Source: a virus
Lineage: Duplodnaviria; Heunggongvirae; Uroviricota; Caudoviricetes; Peduoviridae
Strand: one strand, 5' to 3'
IMG/VR virus record: IMGVR_UViG_2585427767_000007
Length of the DNA stretch: 34,558 bases
Shown: positions 17,025-33,612 of the stretch, piece by piece
Numbering within the stretch: the stretch's first letter is position 1
Layout: every line of letters starts with the position of its first letter
The notes under the pieces: model-generated
What the model saw: only the letters and a program-made list of their open reading frames with translations
Told to the model about the DNA's origin: nothing
Database searches by the model: none
Program-made: the position numbers and the translations under genes

Positions 17025-17227
17025 TGAAGACCTTTGCGCTACAGGGCGACACGCTCGACGCCATTTGTGTCCGCTATTACGGGCGCACTGAGGGCGTGGT
17101 CGAGGCCGTGCTCGCCGCAAATCCGGGACTGGCTGAACTGGGGGCGGTGCTGCCACACGGCACCGCCGTCGAACTGCCCGACGTTCAGACCGCGCCCGTG
17201 GCTGAAACTGTCAATCTGTGGGAGTAA
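17024..17227 (+). CDS. X: Tail protein gpX (small, LysM-like)
   Basis: ATG 17024 overlaps the L stop; 67 aa, matching P2 gpX. The track ORF starting at 16955 is an upstream extension. Confidence 0.8.
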   Translation: MKTFALQGDTLDAICVRYYGRTEGVVEAVLAANPGLAELGAVLPHGTAVELPDVQTAPVAETVNLWE

Positions 17228-17230
17228 CGC

Positions 17231-17512: not shown

Positions 17513-18009
17513 TGCCGGTAATTAACACGCATCAGAATATCGCGGCCTTTCTCGACATGCTGGCCGTGTCCGAAGGGACGGCGAATCATCCGCTGACGAA
17601 AAACCGGGGCTATGACGTGATAGTCACCGGACTGGACGGGAAGCCGGAAATTTTCACCGACTACAGTGACCACCCGTTCGCGCATGGCCGACCGGCGAAG
17701 GTGTTTAACCGTCGCGGTGAAAAATCCACGGCCTCCGGTCGCTATCAGCAGCTTTACCTGTTCTGGCCGCATTACCGCAAACAGCTTGCCCTGCCGGATT
17801 TCAGTCCGTTGTCACAGGACAGACTTGCCATTCAGTTGATCCGCGAACGCGGTGCACTGGATGACGTCCGGGCGGGACGTATTGAGCGCGCCATTTCACG
17901 CTGTCGCAATATCTGGGCGTCCCTGCCGGGTGCCGGTTACGGTCAGCGTGAGCATTCACTGGAAAAACTGGTCACCGTCTGGCGTACCGCTGGCGGCGTA
18001 CCGGCTTAA
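17512..18009 (+). CDS. K: Endolysin gpK (lysozyme-like)
   Basis: 165 aa, start overlapping the holin stop; size and position match P2 gpK. Confidence 0.85.
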   Translation: MPVINTHQNIAAFLDMLAVSEGTANHPLTKNRGYDVIVTGLDGKPEIFTDYSDHPFAHGRPAKVFNRRGEKSTASGRYQQLYLFWPHYRKQLALPDFSPLSQDRLAIQLIRERGALDDVRAGRIERAISRCRNIWASLPGAGYGQREHSLEKLVTVWRTAGGVPA

Positions 18010-18023
18010 ACGGAGTAAACACC

Positions 18024-18449
18024 ATGAAGAAATTATCCCTTTCACTGATGCTGAACGTGTCGCTGGCGCTGATGCTGGCACTGTCCCTGATTTACCCGCA
18101 GAGCGTGGCCGTCAGTTTTGTCGCCACCTGGGCGATTCTGGCGACGGTTATCTGTGTGGTTGCCGGTGGTGTCGGTGTGTATGCCACTGAGTATGTGCTG
18201 GAACGCTACGGGCGGGAGCTGCCGCCGGAATCGCTGGCCGTGAAGATTGTCACGTCGCTGTTTTTGCAGCCGGTAACGTGGTGCCGACGGGCTGTGGGTC
18301 TGGTGGTGATGGTGGCGACGTTTATCTCGCTGGTCGCTGCCGGGTGGATTTTTACCGCGCTGATTTATCTCGTGGCGTCGCTGTTCTTCCGGCTGATACG
18401 TACGGCCTGTCGTCAGCGTCTTGAGGAGCGGGAACTATGTCAAAGCTGA
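18024..18449 (+). CDS. lysA: Lysis regulator LysA (membrane protein)
   Basis: 141 aa with multiple hydrophobic helices; size and position match P2 LysA. Confidence 0.7.
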   Translation: MKKLSLSLMLNVSLALMLALSLIYPQSVAVSFVATWAILATVICVVAGGVGVYATEYVLERYGRELPPESLAVKIVTSLFLQPVTWCRRAVGLVVMVATFISLVAAGWIFTALIYLVASLFFRLIRTACRQRLEERELCQS

Positions 18450-18862
18450 TGATTGTGCTGGTCGTGTTGTTATCGCTGGCGGTGGCCGGTCTGTTTCTGG
18501 TGAAGCATGAAAACGCCAGCCTGCGGGCCTCGCTGGACAGGGTGAACAACGTCGCCAGTGAACAGCAGACGACCATCACTATGCTGAAAAATCAGCTTCA
18601 TGTTGCCCTCACCAGGGCAGACAAAAACGAGCTGGCGCAGGTGGCACTGCGTCAGGAACTGGAGAACGCCGCGAAGCGTGAAGCACAGCGCGAGAAAACC
18701 ATCACGAGGTTACTTAATGAAAACGAAGATTTTCGCCGCTGGTACGGTGCTGACCTGCCTGATGCTGTGCGCCGGTTGCACCAGCGCCCGGCCTGCACCG
18801 ACGCCAGTGATTGTCCACAACGCCTGCCCGAAAGTGAGTCTTTGCCCGATGCCGGGCAGTGA
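18437..18862 (+). CDS. lysB: LysB, Rz-like inner-membrane spanin
   Basis: 141 aa with N-terminal transmembrane helix followed by coiled-coil-like, charged periplasmic region; GAGGAG Shine-Dalgarno. Confidence 0.75.
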   Translation: MSKLMIVLVVLLSLAVAGLFLVKHENASLRASLDRVNNVASEQQTTITMLKNQLHVALTRADKNELAQVALRQELENAAKREAQREKTITRLLNENEDFRRWYGADLPDAVRRLHQRPACTDASDCPQRLPESESLPDAGQ

Positions 18863-19007
18863 CCCGGAGACGAACGGCGATTTAAGTGCTGATATCCGGC
18901 AGCTTGAGAACGCGCTGGCACGCTGTGCCAGCCAGGTAAAAATGATTAAACACTGTCAGGACGAAAACGATGCTCAAACCCGACAGCCTGCGCAGGGCGC
19001 TGACTGA
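18717..19007 (+). CDS. lysC: LysC, Rz1-like outer-membrane lipoprotein spanin, starting inside lysB in another frame
   Basis: ATG 18717 with GAGG upstream gives 96 aa (P2 LysC size). Signal peptide with Cys-containing lipobox-like segment (LTCLMLCAGCTS). Gene begins within the lysB coding region. Confidence 0.7.
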   Translation: MKTKIFAAGTVLTCLMLCAGCTSARPAPTPVIVHNACPKVSLCPMPGSDPETNGDLSADIRQLENALARCASQVKMIKHCQDENDAQTRQPAQGAD

Positions 19008-19437
19008 CGCCGTCACGGTGCTGAAAACCAGTCCCGAGATGCTGCGGATATTCGTGGATAACGGGAGTATTGCCTCCACACTGGCGACGTCTATGTCATT
19101 CGAAAAGCGTTACACGCTCAATGTGATTGTGACCGACTTTACCGGTGATTTTGACCTGCTCATTGTGCCGGTGCTGGCGTGGCTGCGGGAAAATCAGCCC
19201 GACATCATGACCACCGACGAAGGCCAGAAAAAGGGCTTCACGTTTTATGCAGACATCAACAATGACAGCAGCTTTGATATCAGCATCAGCCTGATGCTGA
19301 CCGAGCGCACGCTGGTCAGTGAGGTGGACGGCTCGCTGCATGTGAAGAATATCCCGGAACCTCCGCCGCCGGAGCCGGTCACCCGCCCGATGGAGCTGTA
19401 TATCAATGGCGAACTGGTGAGCAAGTGGGATGAATGA
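18970..19437 (+). CDS. R: Tail completion protein gpR
   Basis: 155 aa; size and position match P2 gpR. Confidence 0.8.
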   Translation: MLKPDSLRRALTDAVTVLKTSPEMLRIFVDNGSIASTLATSMSFEKRYTLNVIVTDFTGDFDLLIVPVLAWLRENQPDIMTTDEGQKKGFTFYADINNDSSFDISISLMLTERTLVSEVDGSLHVKNIPEPPPPEPVTRPMELYINGELVSKWDE

Positions 19438-19882
19438 GTTTAAGCGTTTTGAAGACCGGCTGACCGGACTTATTGAATCGCTGTCACCGTCAGGGCGTCG
19501 GCGACTGAGTGCCGAACTGGCGAAACGTCTGCGTCAGAGTCAGCAGCGTCGGGTGATGGCACAGAAAGCCCCGGACGGCACACCCTACGCACCACGCCAG
19601 CAGCAGAGCGCCAGAAAAAAGACCGGTCGTGTTAAGCGAAAAATGTTTGCGAAACTTATCACCAGTCGTTTTTTGCATATCCGCGCCAGCCCGGAACAGG
19701 CATCAATGGAATTTTACGGCGGGAAGTCGCCGAAAATCGCCAGTGTGCATCAGTTCGGTCTGTCGGAAGAAACCCGAAAAGACGGTAAGAAAATTGATTA
19801 TCCGGCGCGTCCTCTGCTCGGCTTTACCGGTGAGGATGTGCAGATGATTGAAGAGATTATCCTGTCTCACCTCGACCGTTAG
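19430..19882 (+). CDS. S: Tail completion protein gpS
   Basis: 150 aa, start overlapping the R stop; size and position match P2 gpS. Confidence 0.8.
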   Translation: MNEFKRFEDRLTGLIESLSPSGRRRLSAELAKRLRQSQQRRVMAQKAPDGTPYAPRQQQSARKKTGRVKRKMFAKLITSRFLHIRASPEQASMEFYGGKSPKIASVHQFGLSEETRKDGKKIDYPARPLLGFTGEDVQMIEEIILSHLDR

Positions 19883-19948
19883 TTGTGCCATTCCCGACAC
19901 CTCATCGTCACATTGCCGCCGGTATGACCCGGCGGCATCCTTCCCGTT

Positions 19949-20590
19949 ATGAACACACTCGCAAATATTCAGGAACTCGCGCGCGCACTGCGCAATATGA
20001 TTCGCACCGGCGTTATCGTCGAAACCGACCTTAACGCCGGTCGCTGTCGTGTGCAGACCGGCGGCATGTGCACCGACTGGCTTCAGTGGCTGACCCATCG
20101 TGCCGGACGTTCGCGCACATGGTGGGCACCTTCCGTGGGGGAACAGGTGCTGATTCTGGCTGTGGGCGGTGAACTCGACACGGCGTTCGTTCTGCCGGGG
20201 ATTTATTCCGGCGATAACCCCGCGCCGTCTGCGTCGGCGGATGCCCTGCATATCCGTTTCCCTGACGGGGCGGTGATTGAGTATGAACCTGAAACCAGTG
20301 CACTCACGGTAAGCGGAATTAAAACGGCCAGCGTGACGGCTTATGATTCTGTTACCGCCACGGTGCCGGTGGTCATGGTGAAAGCGTCAACCCGCGTCAC
20401 CCTGGACACACCGGAGGTGGTCTGCACCAACAAGCTGACTACCGGCACGCTGGAAGTGCAGAAGGGCGGGAAGATGCACGGCAACATCGAGCATACCGAC
20501 GGGAAATTCACTTCTAACGGCGTTCAGGTGGATGACCACGGTCACGGTGGTGTTAAGTCAGGAGACAACTGGACACAGGGGACAAAATGA
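19949..20590 (+). CDS. V: Baseplate spike/assembly protein gpV
   Basis: 213 aa at the P2 gpV position (P2 gpV about 211 aa from memory). Confidence 0.85.
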   Translation: MNTLANIQELARALRNMIRTGVIVETDLNAGRCRVQTGGMCTDWLQWLTHRAGRSRTWWAPSVGEQVLILAVGGELDTAFVLPGIYSGDNPAPSASADALHIRFPDGAVIEYEPETSALTVSGIKTASVTAYDSVTATVPVVMVKASTRVTLDTPEVVCTNKLTTGTLEVQKGGKMHGNIEHTDGKFTSNGVQVDDHGHGGVKSGDNWTQGTK

Positions 20591-20934
20591 CAGCACGTTA
20601 TCTCGGAATGAATCGCAGTGATGGCCTGACGGTCACTGACCTTGAGCATATCAGCCAGAGTATCGGCGATATCCTGCGCACGCCGGTCGGCTCACGGGTG
20701 ATGCGTCGTGATTACGGCTCGTTGCTGGCGTCAATGATTGACCAGCCGCAGACCCCGGCGCTTGAGTTGCAGATTAAGGTCGCCTGTTACATGGCGGTGC
20801 TGAAATGGGAACCCCGCGTCACCCTGTCATCCGTTACCACGGCGCGCAGCTTTGACGGGCGAATGACGGTCACGTTAACCGGCCAGCACAACGACACCGG
20901 CCAGCCACTTTCATTAACCATCCCTGTGAGTTGA
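20587..20934 (+). CDS. W: Baseplate wedge protein gpW (gp25-like)
   Basis: 115 aa, start overlapping the V stop; matches P2 gpW size. Confidence 0.85.
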   Translation: MTARYLGMNRSDGLTVTDLEHISQSIGDILRTPVGSRVMRRDYGSLLASMIDQPQTPALELQIKVACYMAVLKWEPRVTLSSVTTARSFDGRMTVTLTGQHNDTGQPLSLTIPVS

Positions 20935-20938
20935 AACC

Positions 20939-21847
20939 ATGCCGATTATCGACCTGAACCAGCTACCCGCACCGGATGTGGTCGAGGAGCTGGACTTTGA
21001 AACCATTCTTGCCGAACGCAAGGCGACACTGATTTCCCTTTACCCGGAAGACCTGCAGGAGGCGGTCGCCCGTACCCTGACGCTGGAATCCGAGCCTCTC
21101 GTCAAACTGCTGGAGGAAAATGCTTATCGTGAACTTATCTGGCGTCAGCGTGTGAATGAGGCCGCACGGGCGGTGATGCTGGCCTGTGCTGCCGGTAATG
21201 ACCTTGATGTGATTGGTGCCAATTACAACACCACGCGCCTGATTATCACCCCGGCAGATGATTCGACTATCCCGCCGACACCGGCAGTGATGGAGTCTGA
21301 CACCGATTACCGGCTGCGTATTCAGCAGGCGTTTGAAGGCTTAAGCGTCGCCGGGTCGGTGGGTGCCTATCAGTATCATGGCCGCAGTGCCGACGGGCGT
21401 GTCGCGGATATCTCTGTCACCAGTCCGTCTCCGGCCTGCGTCACCATCTCTGTGCTGTCACGTGAGAATAACGGTGTGGCATCCGAAGACCTGCTGGCGG
21501 TGGTACGTAACGCCCTTAATGGCGAGGATGTCAGGCCGGTGGCCGACCGCGTGACCGTGCAGTCTGCCGCCATCGTTGAATACCAGATAAACGCCACGCT
21601 TTACCTTTACCCTGGTCCCGAAAGCGAACCCATCCGCGCGGCCGCCGTGAAAAAACTGGAAGCGTATATCACGGCACAGCACCGGCTGGGGCGCGACATC
21701 CGTCTGTCTGCCATTTATGCCGCTTTGCATGTGGAAGGCGTGCAGCGTGTCGAACTGACTGCACCGCTGGCCGACATCGTGCTCAACAGTACGCAGGCGT
21801 CTTTCTGTACCGAATACCGCGTCGTGACCGGAGGCTCTGATGAGTGA
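20939..21847 (+). CDS. J: Baseplate protein gpJ
   Basis: 302 aa; matches P2 gpJ size and position. Confidence 0.85.
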   Translation: MPIIDLNQLPAPDVVEELDFETILAERKATLISLYPEDLQEAVARTLTLESEPLVKLLEENAYRELIWRQRVNEAARAVMLACAAGNDLDVIGANYNTTRLIITPADDSTIPPTPAVMESDTDYRLRIQQAFEGLSVAGSVGAYQYHGRSADGRVADISVTSPSPACVTISVLSRENNGVASEDLLAVVRNALNGEDVRPVADRVTVQSAAIVEYQINATLYLYPGPESEPIRAAAVKKLEAYITAQHRLGRDIRLSAIYAALHVEGVQRVELTAPLADIVLNSTQASFCTEYRVVTGGSDE

Positions 21848-22370
21848 TTCGCGCCTGCTGCCGACCGGCTCATCACCGCTTGAAGTTGCCGCCGCAAAAG
21901 CCTGTGCGGAAATTGAAAAAACGCCGGTCAGTATTCGTGAGCTGTGGAACCCGGACACCTGTCCGGCAAATCTGCTGCCGTGGCTGGCGTGGGCGTTTTC
22001 GGTTGACAGGTGGGATGAAAAGTGGCCGGAAGCGACCAAACGCGCCGTGATTCGCGATGCGTATTTCATTCATTGTCATAAAGGCACTGTCGGCGCAATC
22101 CGGCGTGTGGTGGAGCCGCTCGGCTATCTCATTAACGTAAAGGAATGGTGGGAGACAAACGACCCGCCCGGAACCTTTCGCCTTGATATCGGTGTGCTGG
22201 AAAGCGGTATCACGGAGGAGATGTATCTGGAAATGGAACGGCTGATTGCCGATGCCAAACCCGCAAGTCGCCACCTTATCGGTCTGAACATTATCCAGGA
22301 CATTCCCGGCTATCTGTATACAGGCGGTGTGGTCTGTGATGGTGATGTTATTACTGTTTATCCCGGATAA
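21840..22370 (+). CDS. I: Baseplate protein gpI
   Basis: 176 aa, overlapping the J stop; matches P2 gpI. Confidence 0.85.
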   Translation: MSDSRLLPTGSSPLEVAAAKACAEIEKTPVSIRELWNPDTCPANLLPWLAWAFSVDRWDEKWPEATKRAVIRDAYFIHCHKGTVGAIRRVVEPLGYLINVKEWWETNDPPGTFRLDIGVLESGITEEMYLEMERLIADAKPASRHLIGLNIIQDIPGYLYTGGVVCDGDVITVYPG

Positions 22371-22380
22371 GTGAGAAACA

Positions 22381-25140
22381 ATGAGCACGAAATTTAAAAC
22401 CGTTATCACTACTGCCGGAGCCGCAAAGCTGGCAGCCGCCACTGTCCCCGGCGGGAAAAAAGTAAACCTGTCTGCAATGGCCGTGGGTGACGGTAATGGC
22501 AAATTGCCGGTGCCGGATGCCGGTCAGACGAAACTGGTGCATGAGGTCTGGCGTCACGCTCTGAATAAAGTCAGCGTGGATAACAAGAATAAAAACTATA
22601 TCGTGGCTGAACTGGTTGTACCGCCCGAAGTGGGCGGCTTCTGGATGCGTGAGCTTGGTCTGTATGACGATGCCGGAACACTGATTGCGGTATCCAACAT
22701 GGCAGAAAGCTATAAGCCAGAACTGGCTGAAGGCTCCGGACGTGCGCAGACCTGCCGCATGGTTATTATTCTCAGCAACGTGGCGTCCGTTGAGCTGAGT
22801 ATTGATGCCAGCACGGTGATGGCGACGCAGGATTACGTCGATGACAAAATCGCAGAGCATGAGCAGTCCCGCCGCCATCCTGACGCCACGCTGACAGAAA
22901 AAGGTTTTACTCAGTTAAGCAGTGCAACAAACAGCACCAGTGAAAAGCTGGCGGCAACGCCAAAAGCGGTCAAGGCAGCAAATGACAACGCAAATTCACG
23001 TCTGGCGAAAAATCAGAACGGTGCAGATATCCAGGATAAATCAGCTTTTCTGGACAATGTTGGCGTTACCAGCCTGACGTTTATGAAAAACAATGGCGAA
23101 ATGCCGCTTGATGCTGATCTGAATACATTTGGTCCCGTTAAGGCTTATCTGGGGATCTGGTCTAAAGCTACCTCAACTAACGCAACACTGGAGAAAAATT
23201 TCCCGGAAGATAATGCTGTCGGTGTGCTTGAGGTTTTTGCTGCCGGCAATTTTGCAGGTACGCAACGCTTTACCACAAGAGACGGCAATGTATACATGCG
23301 TAAACTCGCCAATAAGTGGAATGGCACTGATGGTCCGTGGGGCGTATGGCGTCACACTCAATCAGCTACCCGCCCTTTGAGTACGACTATAGACCTGAAT
23401 ACGCTTGGAGCCGCCGAACATCTTGGTTTATGGCGTAACAGTAGCTCGGCTATAGCTTCATATGAACGCAATTATCCAGAGGAAGGCGGCTTTGCTCAGG
23501 GGACGCTTGAGATCCTTGAAGGCGGGAATTATGGAAGAACGCAACGTTATACCACTCGCCGTGGAAATATGTATGTCCGCTGCCTTGCGGCAAGCTGGGA
23601 TGCATCAAATCCGCAGTGGGAACCGTGGTTAAGAGTCGGTCATCAGTCAGAGAGTCGTTATTACGAAGGTGATTTGAATGATGTAACCTCACCAGGTATT
23701 TACAGCGTTACAGGTAAAGCGACCAACGGTCCAGTACTGGACGGAAACGGCGTGACTGTACTCGGCATTCTGGAAGTGTTGAGGCGGTTTGATGGTGTTA
23801 ATGTATGGCAGCGTTATACAACTGCCGGAACAGGTACAACCCTTAAAGGCCGCACCTTTGAGCGCGTCTTTACCGGCAGCTCATGGAGCGAATGGCGGGA
23901 AGTCTACACCTCGTATTCACTTCCCCTGAATCTGGGTATCGGCGGTGCTGTGGCAAAGCTCACCAGCCTGGACTGGCAGACCTACGATTTTGTGCCGGGC
24001 AGTCTGATAACCGTTAGGCTGGATAATATGACCAATATTCCCGACGGTATGGACTGGGGCGTCATTGATGGCAACCTGATAAACATCGCAGTTGGTCCGA
24101 GTGATGATTCCGGTACGGGGCGCTCAATGCATGTATGGCGCAGCACTGTAAGTAAAGCGAACTACCGATTTTTTATGGTGCGTATTTCAGGAAATCCGGG
24201 AAGCCGCACGATCACAGCAAGACGAGTACCAATCATTGACGAAGCCCAGACATGGGGCGCGAAACAGACATTCAGTGCTGGCCTTTCTGGTGAACTGTCC
24301 GGCAATGCGGCGACAGCAACAAAGCTGAAAACAGCCCGTAAAATTAATAACGTTTCGTTTGATGGAACATCAGATATTAACCTGACGCCGAAAAATATTG
24401 GTGCATTTGCTTCAGGAAAAACAGGAGACACCGTTGCGAATGATAAAGCCGTTGGGTGGAACTGGAGTAGCGGAGCCTATAACGCAACTACTGGTGGGGC
24501 ATCAACGTTAATTCTTCATTTTAATATCGGTGAAGGAAGTTGTCCCGCCGCCCAGTTCCGCGTTAATTATAAGAACGGCGGTATTTTTTATCGTTCTGCT
24601 CGTGACGGTTACGGATTCGAGGCTGACTGGTCTGAGTTTTATACCACAACGCGAAAACCTACAGCGGGAGATGTCGGTGCACTGCCGTTATCTGGTGGTC
24701 AATTGAATGGTGCTCTGGGTATAGGAACATCCAGTGCTCTTGGCGGTAATTCGATTGTTTTGGGTGATAATGACACGGGCTTTAAACAAAATGGTGATGG
24801 TAATCTGGATGTTTATGCTAATAGCGTCCATATTATGCGCTTTGTCTCGGGAAGTATTCAAAGTAATAAAACCATAAATATTACGGGGCGTGTTAATCCC
24901 TCGGATTACGGTAACTTTGATTCCCGCTATGTCCGGGATATCCGGCTTGGTGGTGCTGCCACATACAAACCTGCGAACAATGGCATGACATGGACACATC
25001 AGGCACCGTCCGGGTGTGTATATTCCGGCATTATTGTTCAGGATACCGGCTCAAACTCTGCCGATAACATTGGTGGTGTATATTACAGGCCGGTTCAGAA
25101 ATACATTAACGGGACATGGTATAACGTGGCGCAGGTATAA
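22381..25140 (+). CDS. H: Tail fibre protein gpH, extended 919-aa variant
   Basis: Position after I. Considerably longer than the roughly 669 aa I remember for P2 gpH. Contains three related internal repeats beginning GVLEVF.../GTLEILEG.../GILEVLRR..., each carrying a QR(F/Y)TT core. Confidence 0.85.
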   Translation: MSTKFKTVITTAGAAKLAAATVPGGKKVNLSAMAVGDGNGKLPVPDAGQTKLVHEVWRHALNKVSVDNKNKNYIVAELVVPPEVGGFWMRELGLYDDAGTLIAVSNMAESYKPELAEGSGRAQTCRMVIILSNVASVELSIDASTVMATQDYVDDKIAEHEQSRRHPDATLTEKGFTQLSSATNSTSEKLAATPKAVKAANDNANSRLAKNQNGADIQDKSAFLDNVGVTSLTFMKNNGEMPLDADLNTFGPVKAYLGIWSKATSTNATLEKNFPEDNAVGVLEVFAAGNFAGTQRFTTRDGNVYMRKLANKWNGTDGPWGVWRHTQSATRPLSTTIDLNTLGAAEHLGLWRNSSSAIASYERNYPEEGGFAQGTLEILEGGNYGRTQRYTTRRGNMYVRCLAASWDASNPQWEPWLRVGHQSESRYYEGDLNDVTSPGIYSVTGKATNGPVLDGNGVTVLGILEVLRRFDGVNVWQRYTTAGTGTTLKGRTFERVFTGSSWSEWREVYTSYSLPLNLGIGGAVAKLTSLDWQTYDFVPGSLITVRLDNMTNIPDGMDWGVIDGNLINIAVGPSDDSGTGRSMHVWRSTVSKANYRFFMVRISGNPGSRTITARRVPIIDEAQTWGAKQTFSAGLSGELSGNAATATKLKTARKINNVSFDGTSDINLTPKNIGAFASGKTGDTVANDKAVGWNWSSGAYNATTGGASTLILHFNIGEGSCPAAQFRVNYKNGGIFYRSARDGYGFEADWSEFYTTTRKPTAGDVGALPLSGGQLNGALGIGTSSALGGNSIVLGDNDTGFKQNGDGNLDVYANSVHIMRFVSGSIQSNKTINITGRVNPSDYGNFDSRYVRDIRLGGAATYKPANNGMTWTHQAPSGCVYSGIIVQDTGSNSADNIGGVYYRPVQKYINGTWYNVAQV

Positions 25141-25143
25141 TTT

Positions 25144-25671
25144 ATGCAGCATTTAAAAAATATTACGGCGGGGAATCCAAAAACGGTTGAACAATATCAA
25201 TTGACAAAGGGTTTTGATGTTGTCTGGTTTTTTTCAGAAGATGGTAAGAACTGGTACGAAGAACAAAAGTATTTTGCTGATGACACGATAAAAATAGCGT
25301 ACGACAAAGATAATATTATCCGCTATGTGGAAAAGGATGTGACAGCTATCAGACCGGATGGATTAAGTGTTGTTGAAGTGGCGGATATTACTGCTAACCG
25401 ACGGGCGGACATTTCAGGGGGCTGGATGTTTAAGGACGGCAAAGTGATTAAACGCATTTATACGGCAGAGGAATTGCTGCAGCAGGCAGAAAACCGGAAA
25501 GCCAGACTTCTTGCAGATGCTGAATCCGTGATTTTGCCGCTGGAGCGCGCGGTCAGACTGAACATGGCAACAGATGAGGAGCGTAGCCGACTGGATGCAT
25601 GGGAGCGTTACAGCGTTCTGGTCAGTCGTGTGGATCCTGCAAATCCTGAATGGCCGGAAATGCCGCAATAA
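25144..25671 (+). CDS. G: Tail fibre assembly chaperone gpG
   Basis: 175 aa immediately after H; matches P2 gpG size. Confidence 0.8.
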
Positions 25672-25892
25672 GTTGTATGATCTCTGGAGTGAGCAAACGT
25701 ATCTATGGCACAGAGTAAAGCCTAATCTGACAGGCCGCTCTGTGTCTGGAGTAGATTTTAGTAAAGCATTATTTTATTAGTGCAAATTCTAATCAATACA
25801 TTTTATGTATATGATATCCTGCAGACTTTAATGACTTGGTTTAGGCTAACCAGATAACACTGAAGGAATATTTTTGATAATTAAGGTACGGT

Positions 25893-26486
25893 ATGTTTAC
25901 TAAGCGACGATTAAAAAATATTAACTGGGAGGCAAGTTCAGTGATTCTTGCTATGGTTCTCTTTGTTGGAAATATATTTTATACAAATCATCGTGATGAT
26001 ATAAGCATGGAGGCTGAGAGGGACAGTATCAGAACAATGTTTGCATATGAAATCGCTAATAACCATCGCGCTCTCACTTTTCTTGATAAAACGAGACATA
26101 TTGGCTTTGACGAAAATTCGGAGCATTTTGTTGGCGAGCCTTTTGCCATTAATGTCAAATCATTAGGGGGGCCTCGCTTACAGATTGCATTAAACCAGAC
26201 TGATAAAGTGTTTAAATCCTACTTCAGCGAATTAAGTAAGCTTGGTAAAGAGGATGTTACTCTTCTTATGGACTATTACCATGAGCAAAGCATCCTGCTG
26301 GAGCGTGTAAAATCTACGTTACAGAAGATGAAAAGTGGTAATGATATTAAAGTTGATATTGATGGTTACTTATTAGAAGAACACTTCATGAATGAGCTTA
26401 ATCTTTCTAATATTTTGCTTAAACGCTATAGCCATTTGTTGTCACAATACGCTAAAGAACATAAAACAAAAGATTTACATAATTGA
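25893..26486 (+). CDS. AT-rich moron at the P2 Z/fun locus: 197-aa hypothetical protein with N-terminal membrane anchor
   Basis: ATG 25893 with AAGG upstream. Single hydrophobic segment SSVILAMVLFVGNIF near the N-terminus. Markedly lower GC than the flanking tail genes; followed by a strong terminator. Confidence 0.65.
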   Translation: MFTKRRLKNINWEASSVILAMVLFVGNIFYTNHRDDISMEAERDSIRTMFAYEIANNHRALTFLDKTRHIGFDENSEHFVGEPFAINVKSLGGPRLQIALNQTDKVFKSYFSELSKLGKEDVTLLMDYYHEQSILLERVKSTLQKMKSGNDIKVDIDGYLLEEHFMNELNLSNILLKRYSHLLSQYAKEHKTKDLHN

Positions 26487-26695
26487 TAATCTGCTAATGG
26501 TTATTCATGGGGTAACTATGTTTTATATGTAATCCAACTCAGATGAATTATTGATTCTGGATAATAACCGCAGAGCGGCATATACCCTGACAGGCAAATG
26601 TCCGCTTCTTGTTCAAAGCAGACTGTCAGATTTGATAACTTTTGGGCTATGTAAATTGTCAGTCGGAAAATGAGTGAGTTCAAATCAGGACAGGC

Positions 26696-26734
26696 GGGGG
26701 GAATTGCCCCCCCTTTTTTTTTTTTTTTTTTTTT
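26696..26734 (+). terminator. Intrinsic terminator: G6-loop-C7 hairpin followed by a T21 homopolymer
   Basis: GGGGGG-AATTG-CCCCCCC (26696-26713) followed by 21 consecutive T (26714-26734), downstream of the moron ORF and about 80 nt upstream of FI. Confidence 0.6.
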
Positions 26735-26816
26735 CCCCTGACCAGCCAGGTCAAATAGCGTCTCATGCTCTGCACAACAGAAAATAGTTGCACCCATTAA
26801 CCACGGAGTTAAACGG

Positions 26817-28007
26817 ATGAGTGACTATCATCACGGCGTGCAGGTGCTGGAGATTAACGACGGCACCCGCGTCATTTCCACCGTATCCACGGCCATTGTC
26901 GGCATGGTCTGCACGGCCAGCGATGCGGATGCGGAAACCTTCCCCCTCAATAAACCGGTGCTGATTACCAATGTGCAGAGCGCAATTGCAAAGGCCGGTA
27001 AAACAGGCACGCTGGCGGCATCGTTGCAGGCCATCGCTGACCAGTCAAAACCGGTCACCGTTGTCGTGCGTGTGGAAGACGGCACCGGCGAAGACGAAGA
27101 AACGAAGCTCGCGCAGACCGTTTCCAATATCATCGGCACCACCGACGAAAACGGTCAGTACACCGGACTGAAAGCCCTGCTGGCGGCGGAGTCGGTAACC
27201 GGTGTTAAACCGCGTATTCTCGGCGTGCCGGGACTGGATACCAAAGAGGTGGCTGTTGCACTGGCATCTGTCTGTCAGAAGTTGCGCGCTTTCGGGTATA
27301 TCAGCGCATGGGGCTGTAAAACCATTTCCGAGGTGAAAGCCTACCGCCAGAATTTCAGCCAGCGTGAGCTGATGGTCATCTGGCCGGATTTCCTCGCATG
27401 GGATACGGTCACCAGTACCACCGCCACCGCGTATGCCACCGCCCGTGCACTGGGGCTGCGTGCCAAAATCGACCAGGAGCAGGGCTGGCATAAAACGCTG
27501 TCCAATGTCGGGGTGAACGGTGTTACCGGCATCAGCGCCTCTGTATTCTGGGATTTGCAGGAGTCCGGCACTGATGCTGACCTGCTGAACGAGGCAGGCG
27601 TCACAACGCTGGTTCGCCGCGACGGTTTCCGTTTCTGGGGTAACCGTACCTGCTCCGATGACCCACTTTTCCTCTTTGAAAACTACACCCGCACCGCGCA
27701 GGTGCTGGCCGACACGATGGCTGAGGCGCACATGTGGGCGGTGGACAAGCCCATCACCGCAACGCTGATTCGCGACATCGTTGACGGCATCAATGCCAAA
27801 TTCCGTGAGCTGAAAACAAACGGCTATATCGTGGATGCGACCTGCTGGTTCAGCGAAGAATCCAACGATGCGGAAACCCTCAAGGCCGGAAAACTGTATA
27901 TCGACTACGACTATACACCGGTGCCTCCTCTCGAAAACCTGACCCTGCGCCAGCGTATTACCGATAAATACCTGGCAAATCTGGTCACCTCGGTTAACAG
28001 CAATTAA
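26817..28007 (+). CDS. FI: Tail sheath protein gpFI
   Basis: 396 aa; size and position match P2 gpFI. Confidence 0.9.
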   Translation: MSDYHHGVQVLEINDGTRVISTVSTAIVGMVCTASDADAETFPLNKPVLITNVQSAIAKAGKTGTLAASLQAIADQSKPVTVVVRVEDGTGEDEETKLAQTVSNIIGTTDENGQYTGLKALLAAESVTGVKPRILGVPGLDTKEVAVALASVCQKLRAFGYISAWGCKTISEVKAYRQNFSQRELMVIWPDFLAWDTVTSTTATAYATARALGLRAKIDQEQGWHKTLSNVGVNGVTGISASVFWDLQESGTDADLLNEAGVTTLVRRDGFRFWGNRTCSDDPLFLFENYTRTAQVLADTMAEAHMWAVDKPITATLIRDIVDGINAKFRELKTNGYIVDATCWFSEESNDAETLKAGKLYIDYDYTPVPPLENLTLRQRITDKYLANLVTSVNSN

Positions 28008-28019
28008 GGAGCCTGACCG

Positions 28020-28538
28020 ATGGCAATGCCGCGCAAACTCAAGTTAATGAACGTCTTTCTGAACGGCTACAGCTATCAGGGCGTTGCAAAGTCCGTCACG
28101 CTGCCAAAACTGACCCGTAAGCTCGAAAACTATCGCGGTGCGGGGATGAACGGCAGCGCACCGGTAGATCTCGGCCTTGATGACGATGCGCTGTCAATGG
28201 AGTGGTCTCTCGGGGGCTTCCCGGATTCGGTTATCTGGGAGCTTTACGCCGCAACCGGTGTGGATGCCGTGCCGATTCGTTTTGCCGGTTCTTACCAGCG
28301 CGACGATACCGGCGAAACGGTGGCCGTCGAGGTGGTCATGCGTGGACGTCAGAAAGAAATCGACACCGGCGAGGGGAAACAGGGAGAAGACACCGAGTCG
28401 AAAATCTCCGTGGTCTGTACCTATTTCCGGCTGACGATGGACGGTAAGGAGTTGGTCGAAATCGACACCATCAACATGATTGAGAAGGTGAACGGCGTCG
28501 ACCGGCTGGAGCAACACCGCCGAAATATCGGCCTGTGA
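28020..28538 (+). CDS. FII: Tail tube protein gpFII
   Basis: 172 aa; size and position match P2 gpFII. Confidence 0.9.
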   Translation: MAMPRKLKLMNVFLNGYSYQGVAKSVTLPKLTRKLENYRGAGMNGSAPVDLGLDDDALSMEWSLGGFPDSVIWELYAATGVDAVPIRFAGSYQRDDTGETVAVEVVMRGRQKEIDTGEGKQGEDTESKISVVCTYFRLTMDGKELVEIDTINMIEKVNGVDRLEQHRRNIGL

Positions 28539-28594
28539 TTTTCATCCGGTCAGCCTGGCTGACCGGTTAACCCTGATTCAGAAGTGAGAAAACC

Positions 28595-28870
28595 ATGAAC
28601 AAAGAAAATGTGATTACCCTGGACAATCCGGTCAAGCGTGGTGAGCAGGTTATCGAACAGGTCACGCTGATGAAACCCAGTGCGGGGACGCTGCGCGGTG
28701 TCAGTCTGGCTGCGGTTGCAAACTCCGAAGTCGATGCACTGATTAAGGTACTGCCGCGCATGACGGCACCGATGCTGACCGAGCAGGAGGTCGCCGCGCT
28801 GGAACTGCCTGACCTTGTGGCGCTGGCCGGTAAGGTGGTCGGTTTTTTGTCGCCGAACTCGGTGCAGTAA
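28595..28870 (+). CDS. E: Tail assembly chaperone gpE
   Basis: 91 aa directly upstream of the tape-measure gene; matches P2 gpE. Confidence 0.8.
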   Translation: MNKENVITLDNPVKRGEQVIEQVTLMKPSAGTLRGVSLAAVANSEVDALIKVLPRMTAPMLTEQEVAALELPDLVALAGKVVGFLSPNSVQ

Positions 28871-29022
28871 CGTTTCCGAAAAATCTCTCGGTCGATGACC
28901 TGATGGCGGATGTGGCAGTGATATTTCACTGGCCGCCATCAGAACTGTATCCCATGAGCCTGACCGAACTCATCACATGGCGCGAAAAGGCACTCCGGCG
29001 AAGCGGAAACACGAATGAGTAA
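28595..29022 (+). CDS. gpE+E' fusion produced by programmed -1 ribosomal frameshift
   Basis: Slippery heptamer T_TTT_TTG at 28843-28849 near the 3' end of E. The -1 frame from 28849 is open for 57 codons to a TAA at 29020-29022, overlapping the T start; predicted fusion is about 141-142 aa, as remembered for P2 E+E'. Confidence 0.6.
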
Positions 29023-31462
29023 CAATGTAAAATTACAGGTATTGCTCAGGGCTGTTGACCAGGCATCCCGCCCGTTTAAATCCATCCGTACAGCGAGCAG
29101 GTCGCTGTCGGGGGATATCCGGGAAACACAAAAATCACTGCGCGAGCTGAACGGTCACGCATCCCGTATTGAGGGATTCCGCAAGACCAGTGCACAGCTC
29201 GCTGTGACTGGTCATGCACTTGAAAAGGCACGGCAGGAGGCCGAAGCCCTTGCCACACAGTTTAAAAATACCGAACGTCCAACCCGTGCTCAGGCGAAAG
29301 TGCTGGAATCCGCAAAGCGTGCGGCGGAGGACTTACAGGCGAAATATAACCGCCTGACGGATTCTGTTAAACGCCAGCAGCGGGAACTGGCCGCTGTGGG
29401 AATTAATACCCGCAATCTTGCACATGATGAGCAGGGGCTGAAAAACCGTATCAGTGAAACCACCGCACAACTTAACCGTCAGCGCGATGCACTGGCGCGT
29501 GTCAGTGCACAACAGGCAAAACTTAACGCAGTAAAACAGCGTTATCAGGCCGGAAAGGAACTGGCCGGAAATATGGCCTCAGTGGGCGCTGCCGGTGTGG
29601 GGATTGCTGCTGCGGGAACGATGGCCGGAGTTAAGCTGCTGATGCCCGGTTATGAGTTTGCGCAGAAAAACTCAGAATTGCAGGCCGTGCTCGGAGTGGC
29701 AAAAGACTCCGCCGAAATGGCCGCGCTCCGCAAGCAGGCGCGCCAGCTCGGCGATAATACCGCCGCCTCGGCGGATGATGCGGCCGGTGCGCAGATTATC
29801 ATTGCGAAAGCGGGTGGAGATGCTGCGGCTATTCAGGCGGCAACGCCGGTCACGCTGAATATGGCACTGGCGAATCAGCGGTCGATGGAAGAAAACGCGC
29901 AACTGTTACTGGGGACTAAGGCATCCTTTCAACTGTCAAATGATGATGTCAGCCATGTGGGCGACGTGTTGTCGGCAACGATGAATAAGTCGGCGGCTGA
30001 TTTTCAGGGACTCAGTGATGCACTGACTTACCTCGGGCCGGTTGCGAGGACGGCAGGTGTAAGTCTTGAGCAGGCAGCGGCCATGACAGGTGTGCTGCAT
30101 GACAATAACATCAGGGGGTCAATGGCGGGTACGGGTAGCAGTGCCGTTGTCACCCGATTACAGGCACCGACTGGAAAAGCATGGGATGCACTCAAAGAGC
30201 TTGGCGTTAAAACCTCGGACAAAAAGGGAAATATGCGTCCGTTGTTCACCATTCTGAAAGAGATTCAGGCCAGCTTTGATAAACACAAGCTGGGAACGTC
30301 TCAGAAGGGGGAATACCTTAAAACCATTTTTGGTGAGGAAGCCCTGAAATCAGCGAACGTTTTACTGGCAGCGGCAGCAAGCGGAAAACTGGATACGCTG
30401 ACCGCCACGCTGAAAGCCTCGGACGGTAAAACGGAAGAGCTGGTTAAAATCATGCAGGATAACCTCGGCGGTGACTTTAAGGAGTTTCAGTCCGCTTATG
30501 AGGCGGTGGGGACTGACCTGTTTGACCAGCAGGAAGGCACACTGCGTAAGCTCACGCAGACGGCCACAAAGTATGTGTTAAAACTCGACGGCTGGATACA
30601 GAAAAACAAATCACTGGCGTCAACCATTGGCCTCATTGCCGGTGGCGCACTGGCGCTGACTGGTGTCATCGGTGCCATTGGTCTTGTAGCCTGGCCGGTT
30701 ATCACCGGCATCAATGCCATTATCGCGGCAGCAGGCGCAATGGGGGCAATCTTCACGACGGTTGGTAGTGCCGTTATGACGGCCATCGGGGCGATTAGCT
30801 GGCCGGTTGTGGCTGTGGTGGCCGCCATTGTCGCCGGGGCGTTGCTTATCCGTAAATACTGGGAGCCTGTCAGCGCATTCTTCGGCGGTGTGGTTGAAGG
30901 GCTGAAAGCAGCATTTGCGCCGGTGGGGGAACTGTTCACGCCACTTAAGCCGGTGTTTGACTGGCTGGGTGAAAAGTTACAGGCCGCGTGGCAGTGGTTT
31001 AAAAACCTGATTGCCCCGGTTAAAGCCACCCAGGACACCCTGAACCGTTGCCGTGACACGGGCGTCATGTTCGGGCAGGCACTGGCTGACGCGCTGATGC
31101 TGCCGCTTAATGCGTTCAACAAACTGCGCAGCGGAATTGACTGGGTACTGGAAAAACTCGGTGTTATCAACAAAGAGTCAGACACACTTGACCAGACCGT
31201 CGCCAGAACTCAAGCCGCCACGTATGGCAGCGGTGGTTATATTCCGGCGACCAGCTCTTATGCAGGCTATCAGGCTTATCAGCCGGTTACGGCACCGGCT
31301 GGCCGCTCTTATGTGGACCAGAGTAAAAACGAATATCACATCAGCCTGACGGGTGGTACTGCGCCGGGGACACAGCTTGACCGCCAGTTACAGGATGCGC
31401 TCGAAAAATACGAGCGGGATAAACGTGCGCGCGCCCGTGCCAGCATGATGCATGACGGTTAA
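29015..31462 (+). CDS. T: Tail tape-measure protein gpT
   Basis: 815 aa, alanine/glycine-rich with hydrophobic central segment; size identical to remembered P2 gpT. Confidence 0.9.
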   Translation: MSNNVKLQVLLRAVDQASRPFKSIRTASRSLSGDIRETQKSLRELNGHASRIEGFRKTSAQLAVTGHALEKARQEAEALATQFKNTERPTRAQAKVLESAKRAAEDLQAKYNRLTDSVKRQQRELAAVGINTRNLAHDEQGLKNRISETTAQLNRQRDALARVSAQQAKLNAVKQRYQAGKELAGNMASVGAAGVGIAAAGTMAGVKLLMPGYEFAQKNSELQAVLGVAKDSAEMAALRKQARQLGDNTAASADDAAGAQIIIAKAGGDAAAIQAATPVTLNMALANQRSMEENAQLLLGTKASFQLSNDDVSHVGDVLSATMNKSAADFQGLSDALTYLGPVARTAGVSLEQAAAMTGVLHDNNIRGSMAGTGSSAVVTRLQAPTGKAWDALKELGVKTSDKKGNMRPLFTILKEIQASFDKHKLGTSQKGEYLKTIFGEEALKSANVLLAAAASGKLDTLTATLKASDGKTEELVKIMQDNLGGDFKEFQSAYEAVGTDLFDQQEGTLRKLTQTATKYVLKLDGWIQKNKSLASTIGLIAGGALALTGVIGAIGLVAWPVITGINAIIAAAGAMGAIFTTVGSAVMTAIGAISWPVVAVVAAIVAGALLIRKYWEPVSAFFGGVVEGLKAAFAPVGELFTPLKPVFDWLGEKLQAAWQWFKNLIAPVKATQDTLNRCRDTGVMFGQALADALMLPLNAFNKLRSGIDWVLEKLGVINKESDTLDQTVARTQAATYGSGGYIPATSSYAGYQAYQPVTAPAGRSYVDQSKNEYHISLTGGTAPGTQLDRQLQDALEKYERDKRARARASMMHDG

Positions 31463-31476
31463 GGAGGTGACGAAAA

Positions 31477-31956
31477 ATGATGCTCGCGTTAGGTATGTTT
31501 GTTTTTATGCGCCAGACGCTGCCACACCAGACCATGCAGCGTGAATCAGATTATCGCTGGCCGTCAAATTCCCGTATCGGTAAACGGGATGCCTACCAGT
31601 TTCTCGGCGTTGGCGAGGAAAACATCACGCTTGCCGGTGTGCTTTATCCCGAACTGACCGGCGGAAAGCTGACGATGACCACGCTCAGGCTGATGGCAGA
31701 GGAAGGCCGGGCGTGGCCGTTGCTGGATGGCACTGGCATGATTTACGGCATGTATGTCATCAGCAGGGTGAGTGAAACAGGGAGTATTTTCTTTGCAGAC
31801 GGCACACCCCGGAAAATTGATTTTACGCTGTCGCTCACCCGCGTTGATGAATCACTGGCCGCGCTTTATGGCGATATCGGTAAACAGACGGAATCGCTCA
31901 TCGGTAAAGCTGGCAGTATGGCGACCAGATTCACGGGTATGACGGGGGCGGCATAA
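31477..31956 (+). CDS. U: Tail protein gpU
   Basis: 159 aa, AAGGAGG Shine-Dalgarno upstream; matches P2 gpU. Confidence 0.85.
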   Translation: MMLALGMFVFMRQTLPHQTMQRESDYRWPSNSRIGKRDAYQFLGVGEENITLAGVLYPELTGGKLTMTTLRLMAEEGRAWPLLDGTGMIYGMYVISRVSETGSIFFADGTPRKIDFTLSLTRVDESLAALYGDIGKQTESLIGKAGSMATRFTGMTGAA

Positions 31957-33119
31957 TGCTGGATGCACTGACATTTGATGCAGGCAGTACGCTGACGCCG
32001 GATTACATGCTGATGCTCGACAGCAGGGATATTACCGGCAATATCAGCGACCGTCTGATGAGTATGACCCTGACGGATAACCGGGGCTTTGAGGCTGACC
32101 AGCTTGATATTGAACTGAACGATGCCGACGGGCAGGTCGGGCTGCCGGTTCGTGGCGCTGTCCTGACGGTGTATATCGGCTGGAAAGGTTTTGCCCTGGT
32201 ATGCAAAGGGAAATTCACCGTTGATGAGGTTGAACACCGGGGCGCGCCGGATGTGGTCACCATCCGCGCCCGGAGTGCAGATTTCCGCGGGACGCTCAAT
32301 TCCCGCCGGGAAGGCTCCTGGCATGACACCACGCTCGGTGCAATTGTTGAGGCGATAGCCTCCCGTAACAGGCTGGAAGCCAGTGTCGCTCCGTCACTGG
32401 CCGGAATTAAAATCCCGCACATCGACCAGTCGCAGGAGTCTGATGCGAAATTCCTGACCCGTCTTGCAGAACGCAACGGCGGTGAGGTGTCGGTAAAAAT
32501 GGGAAAACTGTTGTTTCTCAAAGCGGGGCAGGGGGTGACGGCCAGTGGTAAAAAAATCCCGCAGATTACCATCACCCGCAGTGACGGCGACCGCCATCAT
32601 TTTGCGATTGCTGACCGTGGAGCCTATACCGGCGTAACAGCAAAGTGGTTACACACCAAAGACCCGAAACCGCAAAAGCAGAAGGTAAAACTGAAACGCA
32701 AAAAGAAAGAAAAACACCTGCGCGCACTGGAGCACCCGAAAGCGAAACCGGTCAGGCAGAAGAAAGCGCCTAAAGTACCGGAAGCGCGCGAAGGTGAATA
32801 CATGGCCGGTGAGGCTGATAACGTTTTTGCCCTGACCACGGTATATGCCACGAAAGCGCAGGCCATGCGCGCCGCTCAGGCGAAGTGGGATAAACTGCAA
32901 CGGGGTGTTGCGGAGTTCTCCATCAGCCTGGCTACCGGTCGGGCAGATATTTACACGGAAACACCGGTTAAAGTGTCAGGCTTTAAGCGCGTCATAGACG
33001 AGCAGGACTGGACAATCACTAAGGTGACACATTTTCTGAATAATAGCGGCTTCACGACGTCCTTGGAGCTTGAGGTCAGGCTTTCTGATGTGGAGTACGA
33101 AACAGAAGATGATGAGTGA
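31956..33119 (+). CDS. D: Tail protein gpD
   Basis: 387 aa, start overlapping the U stop; matches P2 gpD. Confidence 0.85.
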   Translation: MLDALTFDAGSTLTPDYMLMLDSRDITGNISDRLMSMTLTDNRGFEADQLDIELNDADGQVGLPVRGAVLTVYIGWKGFALVCKGKFTVDEVEHRGAPDVVTIRARSADFRGTLNSRREGSWHDTTLGAIVEAIASRNRLEASVAPSLAGIKIPHIDQSQESDAKFLTRLAERNGGEVSVKMGKLLFLKAGQGVTASGKKIPQITITRSDGDRHHFAIADRGAYTGVTAKWLHTKDPKPQKQKVKLKRKKKEKHLRALEHPKAKPVRQKKAPKVPEAREGEYMAGEADNVFALTTVYATKAQAMRAAQAKWDKLQRGVAEFSISLATGRADIYTETPVKVSGFKRVIDEQDWTITKVTHFLNNSGFTTSLELEVRLSDVEYETEDDE

Positions 33120-33200
33120 TGCTTTTATTTTATCTGTTTGTTTTATAAGGATAAATTAACTAAAATGGCACCATCAACAAAACCGGAAGAGGTGCTCGCG

Positions 33201-33419
33201 ATGTTTCATTGTCCTTTATGCCAGCATGCCGCACATGCGCGTACAAGCCGCTATATCACTGACACGACAAAAGAGCGTTATCATCAGTGCCAGAACGTGA
33301 ATTGCAGTGCCACGTTCATCACTTATGAGTCGGTACAGCGATACATCGTGAAGCCGGGAGAAGTCCACGCCGTAAGGCCGCACCCGTTGCCGTCAGGGCA
33401 GCAAATTATGTGGATGTGA
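33201..33419 (+). CDS. ogr: Late-gene transcriptional activator Ogr (zinc-finger)
   Basis: ATG 33201 (MFHCPLCQHAAHAR...) gives 72 aa with CxxC...CxxxxC zinc-binding cysteines (CPLC...CQNVNC); matches remembered P2 Ogr. The track ORF from 33138 begins at a TTG. Confidence 0.85.
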   Translation: MFHCPLCQHAAHARTSRYITDTTKERYHQCQNVNCSATFITYESVQRYIVKPGEVHAVRPHPLPSGQQIMWM

Positions 33420-33429
33420 TCACAAAAAT

Positions 33430-33456
33430 AGCCCCTCAGTTGAGGGGCTTTATTTA
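33430..33456 (+). terminator. Rho-independent terminator after ogr
   Basis: AGCCCCTCA-gt-TGAGGGGCT hairpin followed by TTTATTT, 10 nt after the ogr stop. Confidence 0.65.
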
Positions 33457-33612
33457 TGGTCGATGTGGACGCTATGTGGACAGTGGTTGATATAAATCCA
33501 TTTATATCATCAGGTTAGGTGCTTTTTTGTGACACCATCCCTGTCTTCCCCCACATGATGTGGGGTTTTTTTTTATCCTCAATTTGCTTGCTGCTTAATG
33601 CATTGCAGATGA
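33457..33612. other. Putative attR region (phage arm plus core), boundaries not resolved
   Basis: Between ogr and host fieF. Contains direct repeat ATGTGGAC x2 (33462-33469, 33473-33480), palindrome GATATAAAT-cca-ATTTATATC (33489-33509), and hairpin CCCCACAT-gatg-TGGGG followed by T9 (about 33549-33575). attL is not in the window, so the core cannot be confirmed. Confidence 0.4.

Follow-up and report, generated by a model that had tools for sequence, protein, structure and literature searches.

Phage P2 carries, between its tail-fibre assembly gene G and its tail sheath gene FI, the gene fun(Z), an AT-rich and non-essential cargo that is annotated as lysogenic conversion and is responsible for T5 exclusion and sensitivity to fluorodeoxyuridine (FUdR). 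This locus was described by Vassallo et al. 2022 (PMC9519451) as the second defence-enriched site of P2, with fun and three validated systems, and the Z/fun hotspot was independently recovered in the iLund4u preprint, where its cargo is mixed and includes tail-fibre swaps and invertases. The preprint assigns PD-T4-5, PD-T4-9 (CmdTAC) and PD-T4-10 to the two P2 hotspots; the three systems are unnamed in Vassallo et al. 2022. In this study, we analyzed 34,558 nucleotides of DNA from a virus of the Peduoviridae (IMG/VR record IMGVR_UViG_2585427767_000007), the whole of which is called the window and which is, by blastn against P2 (NC_001895), a whole P2-like prophage. At the fun site it has a different gene, hereafter the cargo gene, encoding a protein of 197 residues. 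The original prediction, made from the sequence of the window, had described an AT-rich gene between G and FI at a locus where P2-like phages frequently hold defence genes; the open reading frame (ORF), the flanks and the G+C content agree with the first part, and the second is documented in the two works cited above. We regard the cargo gene as a reasonable candidate for defence, no more, and as an ordinary-looking one.

A second group of described systems is that of superinfection exclusion (Sie). T4 Sp and Imm, HK97 gp15, P22 SieA and P1 Sim are small phage-borne inner-membrane proteins with this function, and HK97 gp15 is a moron inside the tail gene cluster. For P22 SieA the role in superinfection exclusion is described in PMC10883804. 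The window protein is likewise phage-borne, non-essential, single, small and, by prediction, membrane-associated, and its predicted architecture, with an N-terminal anchor and an extracytoplasmic domain, resembles that of T4 Sp. We know of no four-helix-bundle domain in any of these five proteins, and neither Pfam and PHROGs nor an exhaustive hidden Markov model (HMM) search gave any homology to the Sie families Imm, Sp, SieA/SieB, gp15/YebO, Sim, Cor and Llp. Judged by architecture and genomic habit, the window protein appears to resemble the Sie proteins most.

We propose, tentatively and with clearly less than an even chance of being right, that the cargo gene is expressed from the prophage and that its product acts in the inner membrane as an exclusion protein, blocking a membrane step that is most likely DNA entry. 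The chances of some anti-phage role are, in our estimation, about even. Our best guess is that the protein acts against phages at the inner membrane, because of the contexts in which the family occurs and because of the published defence systems at the P2 locus. Synthesis of the protein in the lysogen would rely on an AT-rich candidate promoter of the cassette itself, and late in infection V-operon transcripts that run on into the gene would probably contribute as well. The protein would insert into the inner membrane as a bitopic protein with a basic N-terminus, a conserved transmembrane helix and a bundle that most likely lies in the periplasm. Through the transmembrane helix and helix 1, the protein would bind a membrane component, of the host or of the incoming phage, that is needed for DNA entry, and the result would be superinfection exclusion of other phages at the inner membrane. 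In broader terms, and here our expectation falls slightly short of an even chance, the protein may represent a new family of single-gene, membrane-embedded exclusion factors against phages or other mobile genetic elements (MGEs) that was missed by PADLOC and by published hotspot screens. Such a family would combine a sequence-specific transmembrane helix with a periplasmic four-helix bundle, and would be shuttled among P2-like phages, P4-like satellites, integrative and conjugative elements (ICEs), plasmids and defence islands of Enterobacterales.

The cargo gene shares with fun(Z) the G-FI site, the AT-richness, the non-essential nature and the annotation as lysogenic conversion. However, Fun(Z) has 528 residues and is encoded on the opposite strand, whereas the window protein is much shorter and lies on the late-gene strand; the two have no predicted membrane anchor in common, and homology to Fun(Z) (NP_046777) was rejected, the best BLASTP match having E=3.2 over 19 residues. 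PD-T4-5, PD-T4-9 (CmdTAC) and PD-T4-10 are the same kind of P2-hotspot cargo in Escherichia coli prophages, but their PADLOC models do not match the window protein. At the nucleotide level, the blocks of homology to P2 cover the early region (window 1755-7022), cosL through gene S (10514-19884), V through the start of H (19949-22986), G plus 73 bp (25086-25744) and the pF region through ogr (26601-33509). The homology ends 73 bp past G, at 25744, and restarts at 26601. The segment in between takes the place of P2 15347-17432 (2,086 bp), which contains fun(Z). Its ORF has a G+C content of 0.352 (0.335 at third codon positions) and the 148 bp upstream 0.291, compared to 0.515 in the window and 0.569 in FI, and the most AT-rich 815-bp stretch of the whole 34.5 kb begins at 25751.

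The substitution pattern indicates that the cargo gene is a real gene under purifying selection, because the ratio of non-synonymous to synonymous substitutions (dN/dS) is 0.07-0.16 against homologues of 56-70% protein identity, where dS is unsaturated, and because the identical cassette occurs in 201 genomes and 13 phage records. The genomes are 201 of 5,426 complete E. coli genomes (about 1 in 27), or 201 of the 1,662 that match the flanks. The arrangement G-cargo-FI in the phage records is that of P24B2, P24E6b, P22H1, PhiR44_1, D8, 12W, SIDE7 and AC1 plus RefSeq duplicates. The identical protein was found on 158 contigs, and its cluster at 90% identity has 569 members. Truncated versions of 99 residues (cluster members P0040 and P0042) were seen on about 40 E. 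coli contigs, and an IS1 element is inserted at the locus in NZ_CP090319.1 (hit H33). Because of these truncations and this insertion, we conclude that the gene is sometimes inactivated in E. coli lineages.

The sole known family of the protein is PHROG 3829, whose profile was matched over its full length (E=2.5e-136, residues 1-197 against positions 1-197 of 197). The family is annotated as 'unknown function', so membership is uninformative on mechanism. A word-indexed search of 5.8 billion proteins gave 37 family clusters at 90% identity, and the exhaustive HMM search of 1.84 billion representatives gave 29 clusters at 50% identity, family members alone. All members with an organism name are from Enterobacterales (E. 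coli, Salmonella, Pantoea, Kosakonia, Pluralibacter, Enterobacter, Dickeya and Pectobacterium), while many others derive from metagenome or sequencing-run assemblies that carry no such name. Pfam had no match for the window protein and NCBIfam nothing significant; among 29 family members, Pfam gave scattered single matches to unrelated models, none at the gathering score. The earlier statement that the protein has no recognizable motif thus holds, as Pfam, NCBIfam and PADLOC were all empty and PHROG 3829 is unannotated. The protein is an uncharacterized, hotspot-borne prophage moron, whose sequences are already public as hypothetical proteins.

The N-terminus of the protein, MFTKRRLKNINW, is followed by the hydrophobic segment EASSVILAMVLFVGNIFYT (residues 13-31), the only one in the protein, with a Kyte-Doolittle mean of 1.54 and with K4, R5, R6 and K8 in front of it. 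By hydropathy prediction, with no dedicated topology predictor, one hydrophobic helix was kept in all 28 full-length members that we examined, and the single N-terminal anchor of the original prediction was recovered in this way. A cleavable signal peptide was rejected by reading the sequence, no predictor being used: an AXA-like site is absent after the hydrophobic segment, which we treat as a signal anchor. AlphaFold2 with a shallow alignment gave a poor model with a predicted local distance difference test score (pLDDT) of 62. When distant members were added (alignment A2, down to 20% identity), the pLDDT rose to 84, with a predicted template modelling score (pTM) of 0.72. In this model an unbroken helix runs from residue 12 to 66, such that the transmembrane segment passes directly into bundle helix 1 (residues 45-66); a conserved loop (67-91, GEPFAINxKSLGGxRL) and the helices 92-116, 119-148 and 151-178 follow. 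The predicted fold, an up-down four-helix bundle carried by one membrane anchor, is a generic one. Remote homology search and structure prediction, as proposed with the original prediction, thus leave the protein an orphan in sequence with an unspecific bundle.

Conservation was distributed unevenly over the protein. Among 16 sequences mutually less than 62% identical, the mean frequency of the top residue was 0.54 in the transmembrane segment and 0.56 in helix 1, compared to 0.38-0.45 in the rest, and the polar residues W12, E13, S16 and N27 are retained in the transmembrane helix. Because these polar residues are kept and the conservation of the segment equals that of the best soluble part, it seems that the transmembrane helix and helix 1 make a specific contact in or at the membrane and are not a passive anchor. 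In the wider family only R47, N57 and L117 are invariant. The orientation is fairly probably N-in/C-out with a periplasmic bundle: taken over 29 members, the flank on the N-terminal side of the helix has a net charge of +55 and that on the C-terminal side one of -6, and a CX4C pair occurs in the C-terminal part of four distant members.

Other identities were considered and rejected. That E53, H58, H130 and E131 of the bundle form a di-metal or enzymatic site is contradicted by the variation of H58, which is not among the three invariant residues. For the periplasmic sensor domain 4HB_MCP/TarH there was no Pfam match, no second transmembrane helix and no signalling module, and the likeness of the fold to the sensor bundles of chemoreceptors and histidine kinases was no better than that to designed bundles. 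A holin was rejected since only one distant member came near Phage_holin_2_3 (E=0.058) and the gene lies outside the lysis cassette (Y-K-lysABC homologues within 10514-19884). Foldseek of the first model (pLDDT 62) against the PDB gave nothing with E below 0.6, and the viral structures of BFVD gave nothing below E=0.07; a weak match to an ORF of the HP1 int-cI region (E=0.27) was not trusted, and the single match of the sequence profile to a solved structure (E=0.17) was rejected.

A family member is always a lone gene, whose neighbours vary between loci (Table 1). In qualitative terms, the family is found in hotspots and defence islands, including P2 hotspots, satellites and the neighbourhoods of restriction-modification (R-M) and SIR2-HerA systems. 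The cassette is evidently a mobile, stand-alone accessory or anti-MGE cargo and not a virion or assembly protein. That it could be a conserved structural or assembly protein, a possibility raised with the original prediction, is inconsistent with its absence from P2 and from most P2-like loci (201 of 1,662 carry it). The members in P4-like satellites come from Pantoea ananatis, Kosakonia and one IMG/VR contig, and the site after the alpha primase may be a second cargo site of these satellites, distinct from the described psu-int hotspot. The copies in a Pantoea island and an Enterobacter cloacae plasmid suggest descent from a P2-borne cassette, because roughly 30 bp of the right-hand P2 junction is retained in them. 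In both loci of a distant 217-residue subfamily with a C-terminal CX4C pair (L012 6001-6654 and L013 6001-6654), an IS110-family transposase lies within 2 kb, which may be chance or a clue to mobility.

Table 1. Coordinates of the features at the cargo locus of the window, and locations of family members in other elements (positions there are those of the named locus).
Feature	Position	Strand	Basis or neighbours
gpG tail-fibre assembly gene, left flank, last of late V operon	25144..25671	+	Pfam Caudo_TAP E=3.1e-34; nucleotide identity to P2 G 77%
Stem-loop GGCACAGAG...CUCUGUGUC right after G stop, common to P2	25706..25747	+	Aligns with P2 15300-15346
Cargo segment, 856 bp, G+C 0.343	25745..26600	+	Limits of blastn homology to P2; G+C values
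Putative own promoter, TTCTAA, 17 nt, TATGAT, AT-rich tract upstream	25787..25815	+	8/12 consensus positions
Second promoter-like site, ATAACA, 16 nt, GATAAT	25854..25881	+	Consensus scan, 9/12 positions
Shine-Dalgarno TAAGGT, 6 nt before ATG	25882..25887	+	Read directly; TAAGGA in Pantoea and E. cloacae copies
Cargo gene, 197 residues: basic N-terminus, one transmembrane helix, four-helix bundle (predicted)	25893..26486	+	ATG ORF; PHROG 3829; dN/dS; AlphaFold2
Codons of predicted transmembrane helix, residues 13-31	25929..25985	+	Hydropathy; segment conservation
Right junction; short stretch still joined to cassette in Pantoea island and E. cloacae plasmid copies	26592..26629	+	blastn of loci against window
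Intrinsic terminator for cargo gene and any V-operon read-through	26693..26735	+	Terminator scan; backbone shared with P2
gpFI tail sheath gene, right flank, first of F operon	26817..28007	+	Pfam Phage_sheath_1 E=5.6e-34; nucleotide identity to P2 94%
Three P4-like satellites, att-proximal end	L007 5001-5600; L010 5001-5591; L045 4001-4591		Directly after alpha primase
Hotspot #1 (portal side) of another P2-like phage	L046		Adjoins KAP-family NTPase, PADLOC PDC-S49 E=4e-88
Salmonella, edge of lambdoid prophage	L004		Adjoins type II R-M pair: methyltransferase E=3e-182, restriction endonuclease E=4e-178
Dickeya	L013		About 3 kb from SIR2-HerA; group II intron and IS110 element between
Salmonella ICE	L012		Between tra genes
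Pectobacterium siphovirus tail module	L014		Strand opposite to tail genes
IncFII plasmid	L008		Adjoins IS91 element
Islands			AlpA, ParB, RadC/antirestriction or AbiJ-like genes
Homologue beside antirestriction gene	L011		Adjoins Antirestriction (KlcA/ArdB-type) gene and RadC gene

The signals around the gene are consistent with two routes of expression. Upstream of the gene, only the block 25785-25820 remains conserved (83%) in the Pantoea island copy, which encodes a protein of 68% identity, and on this ground the first promoter in Table 1 is our best candidate for expression in lysogeny. A cassette that brings its own promoter would be expected to take this sequence along, and about 35 bp of upstream sequence did move with the gene into a non-phage island. 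The second promoter-like site is less plausible because transcription from it would begin within the Shine-Dalgarno sequence or downstream of it; the consensus scan gave two sites in the region compared to 3.7 expected by chance. The stem-loop after G is part of a region (25690-25790) with a predicted folding energy of -30.8 kcal/mol (z=-2.8), and it is not a canonical terminator because an adjacent U-tract is lacking. It may delimit the hotspot on the left as a recombination boundary, or stabilize the 3' end of the V-operon mRNA; a part of it persists in front of the Pantoea island gene (L009, about 4790-4830). Between G and the gene there is no canonical terminator. Late V-operon transcription plausibly reads through the cargo gene, because the first strong terminator on the plus strand (26693-26735) lies downstream of it. 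The terminator scan gave 8 hits compared to 1.0 expected, and the version of this terminator in relatives folds with -20.1 kcal/mol (z=-4.0), as aligned with five relatives and P2.

Published lysogens provide an indirect test of the exclusion proposed here. Rousset et al. 2022 (PMC9122126) isolated four P2-like phages, and we found an intact copy of the cargo gene in two of them, AC1 and SIDE7. Their lysogens were challenged with lambda, T4, P1, 186, CLB_P2, LF82_P8, AL505_P2 and T7, a panel without T5 and most siphoviruses; the other P2-like phages are uninformative for the cargo gene. The sole protective lysogen was that of AC1, against lambda and LF82_P8, and its phenotype was reproduced by the cloned TIR system of the other hotspot (old/tin site). 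Indirectly, these data weigh against a broad-spectrum defence and are compatible with a narrow one, the negative result for SIDE7 being implied and not displayed. The earlier proposal of a lysogenic-conversion or defence gene thus stands with respect to the locus and the mobile cassette, but it gains nothing from homology, to Fun(Z) or to defence proteins, and the lysogens of AC1 and SIDE7 had no protection attributable to the gene.

Several points count against an exclusion protein. In E. coli C, AC1 and SIDE7 had, on this indirect evidence, no visible effect on T4, T7, P1, 186, CLB_P2 and AL505_P2. PADLOC-DB 2.0.0, including its candidate PDC families, contained no family that matched the window protein at E<=10, and two of three distant members had no match at E<=0.01; the third, from Pectobacterium (L014), had two weak matches only, to the Cyclase and PtuB models (E about 0.005). 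The argument from guilt by association draws on some dozen loci, without a statistical test. Carriage by P4-like satellites speaks against P2-type helpers as the target of exclusion. In addition, the candidate promoter did not reach the scan threshold of 9/12, the hydropathy of the transmembrane segment is moderate, and the counts of lysine and arginine on its two flanks are similar (81 and 91), which makes the orientation insecure.

Among the alternatives, an abortive-infection effector would oligomerize through its transmembrane helix on infection, depolarize or permeabilize the inner membrane and kill the cell before phage progeny leave it. The mobile, defence-associated contexts would suit such an effector equally, the conserved polar transmembrane residues could line an oligomeric pore, and single-pass membrane proteins are recurrent defence effectors (reviewed in PMC9122126). 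The gene is retained alone, and sensing and killing would then share one protein. However, we found no partner gene, no sensor or enzymatic domain and no match to an abortive-infection or PADLOC model. A soluble four-helix bundle of 160 residues is atypical of pore formers, the AC1 and SIDE7 lysogens had no attributable phenotype, and late-operon read-through of a suicide effector would be risky to the phage itself. We consider this alternative unlikely.

Lysogenic conversion other than defence, by an envelope protein that alters host physiology (stress tolerance, surface polysaccharide, colonization or competition) to the advantage of the lysogen and without acting directly on phages, is to our mind improbable as well. 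The NCBI family name is 'lysogenic conversion protein', but no experiment in support of this name was found in the literature, nor was the name found in combination with P2-related terms; PHROG 3829, the FIG id and the RefSeq accession were unmentioned in any paper found. The lysogens in PMC9122126 had no phage phenotype attributable to the gene, in line with conversion, and morons of the P2 hotspots do include the non-defence cytolethal distending toxin and partition systems. The hosts, by comparison, are both animal-associated (E. coli, Salmonella) and plant-associated (Pantoea, Dickeya, Pectobacterium, Kosakonia), which argues against niche-specific virulence, and the recurrent neighbourhoods of defence hotspots, R-M and SIR2-HerA are more typical of anti-MGE cargo. 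A signalling or enzymatic domain is lacking, and the generic likeness to sensor bundles described above is of no help.

Less probable still is an accessory role in the phage life cycle, in which a late V-operon product would block injection by progeny into infected or lysing cells or tune lysis or the tail fibre. The gene follows H-G immediately, on the late strand and without an intervening canonical terminator, and the Pectobacterium homologue is also within a tail module; llp of T5 and the cor genes adjoin receptor-binding genes. But the Pectobacterium copy is antiparallel to the tail genes, the family is present in elements without virion genes (P4-like satellites, the ICE, the IncFII plasmid and chromosomal islands), and most P2-like phages do without the gene. 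A tie to one tail-fibre type was also rejected, as the cassette adjoins H genes of at least four lengths, and we conclude from this that recombination exchanges the cargo independently of the tail-fibre module. Counter-defence, by a membrane-anchored neutralizer of a host or rival defence such as a membrane-bound abortive-infection effector, is very improbable: phage and satellite hotspots carry anti-defence besides defence genes and the L011 homologue adjoins Antirestriction (KlcA/ArdB-type) and RadC genes, but the protein is not like known anti-defence proteins, a gene that is kept stably in single copy in the prophage and has an AT-rich promoter region of its own is better suited to lysogenic than to early-entry expression, and an inhibitor would hardly be expected to share its element with R-M and SIR2-HerA.

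An unknown gene at the Z/fun site will not surprise a specialist, yet this family is common in E. coli, compact, orphan and cheap to test, and the complete E. coli genomes that carry the cassette do so in a site proven for anti-phage genes. If membrane exclusion is true, the cassette would be a compact single-gene defence determinant of 0.6 kb, relevant to the prediction of phage-therapy host range in clinical E. coli, and its conserved transmembrane helix would help to find the membrane component, of host or phage, on which the targeted phages depend for DNA entry. If there is no phage phenotype, the gene would be a counter-example to guilt by association at P2 hotspots.

In the old/tin hotspot of the prophage, between A and cos/Q (7279-10372, G+C 0.395), there is a two-gene type II R-M system, with a C5 cytosine methyltransferase of 369 residues (PADLOC MTase_II, E=1e-88) and an endonuclease of 665 residues (REase_II, E=1e-94). 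The tail fibre gene H (22381-25140) encodes 919 residues compared to 669 in P2; the C-terminus of its product has T4 gp37-like domains (gp37_C, gp37_trimer), and the distal two-thirds of the gene are without nucleotide homology to P2.

Downstream of the cargo gene, the terminator and pF region of the window is aberrantly rich in homopolymers compared with all relatives. At 26696-26740, five close relatives (MZ1211, A8, JNU, PhiR44_1 and AC1) have GGCGGGCGAATTGCCCGCCTTTTCTTTATCTGTTGTTTCATCCAC and the window has GGCGGGGGGAATTGCCCCCCCTTTTTTTTTTTTTTTTTTTTTTCCCC. The difference amounts to about 12 substitutions and one insertion, each of which extends a neighbour's homopolymer, and it appears to be an error of sequencing or assembly. 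Should it be genuine, the Ogr-type site (TGT-N12-CCA) of the F-operon late promoter would be without its TGT half-site, and expression of the tail sheath and tube could be crippled. A minus-strand ORF of 93 residues (26516-26797), which covers both the terminator and the pF promoter region, is most likely spurious as a gene. Its poly-lysine run stems from the aberrant T-run, and in related phage records its counterpart is a 38-residue 'FIG00643520 hypothetical protein'.

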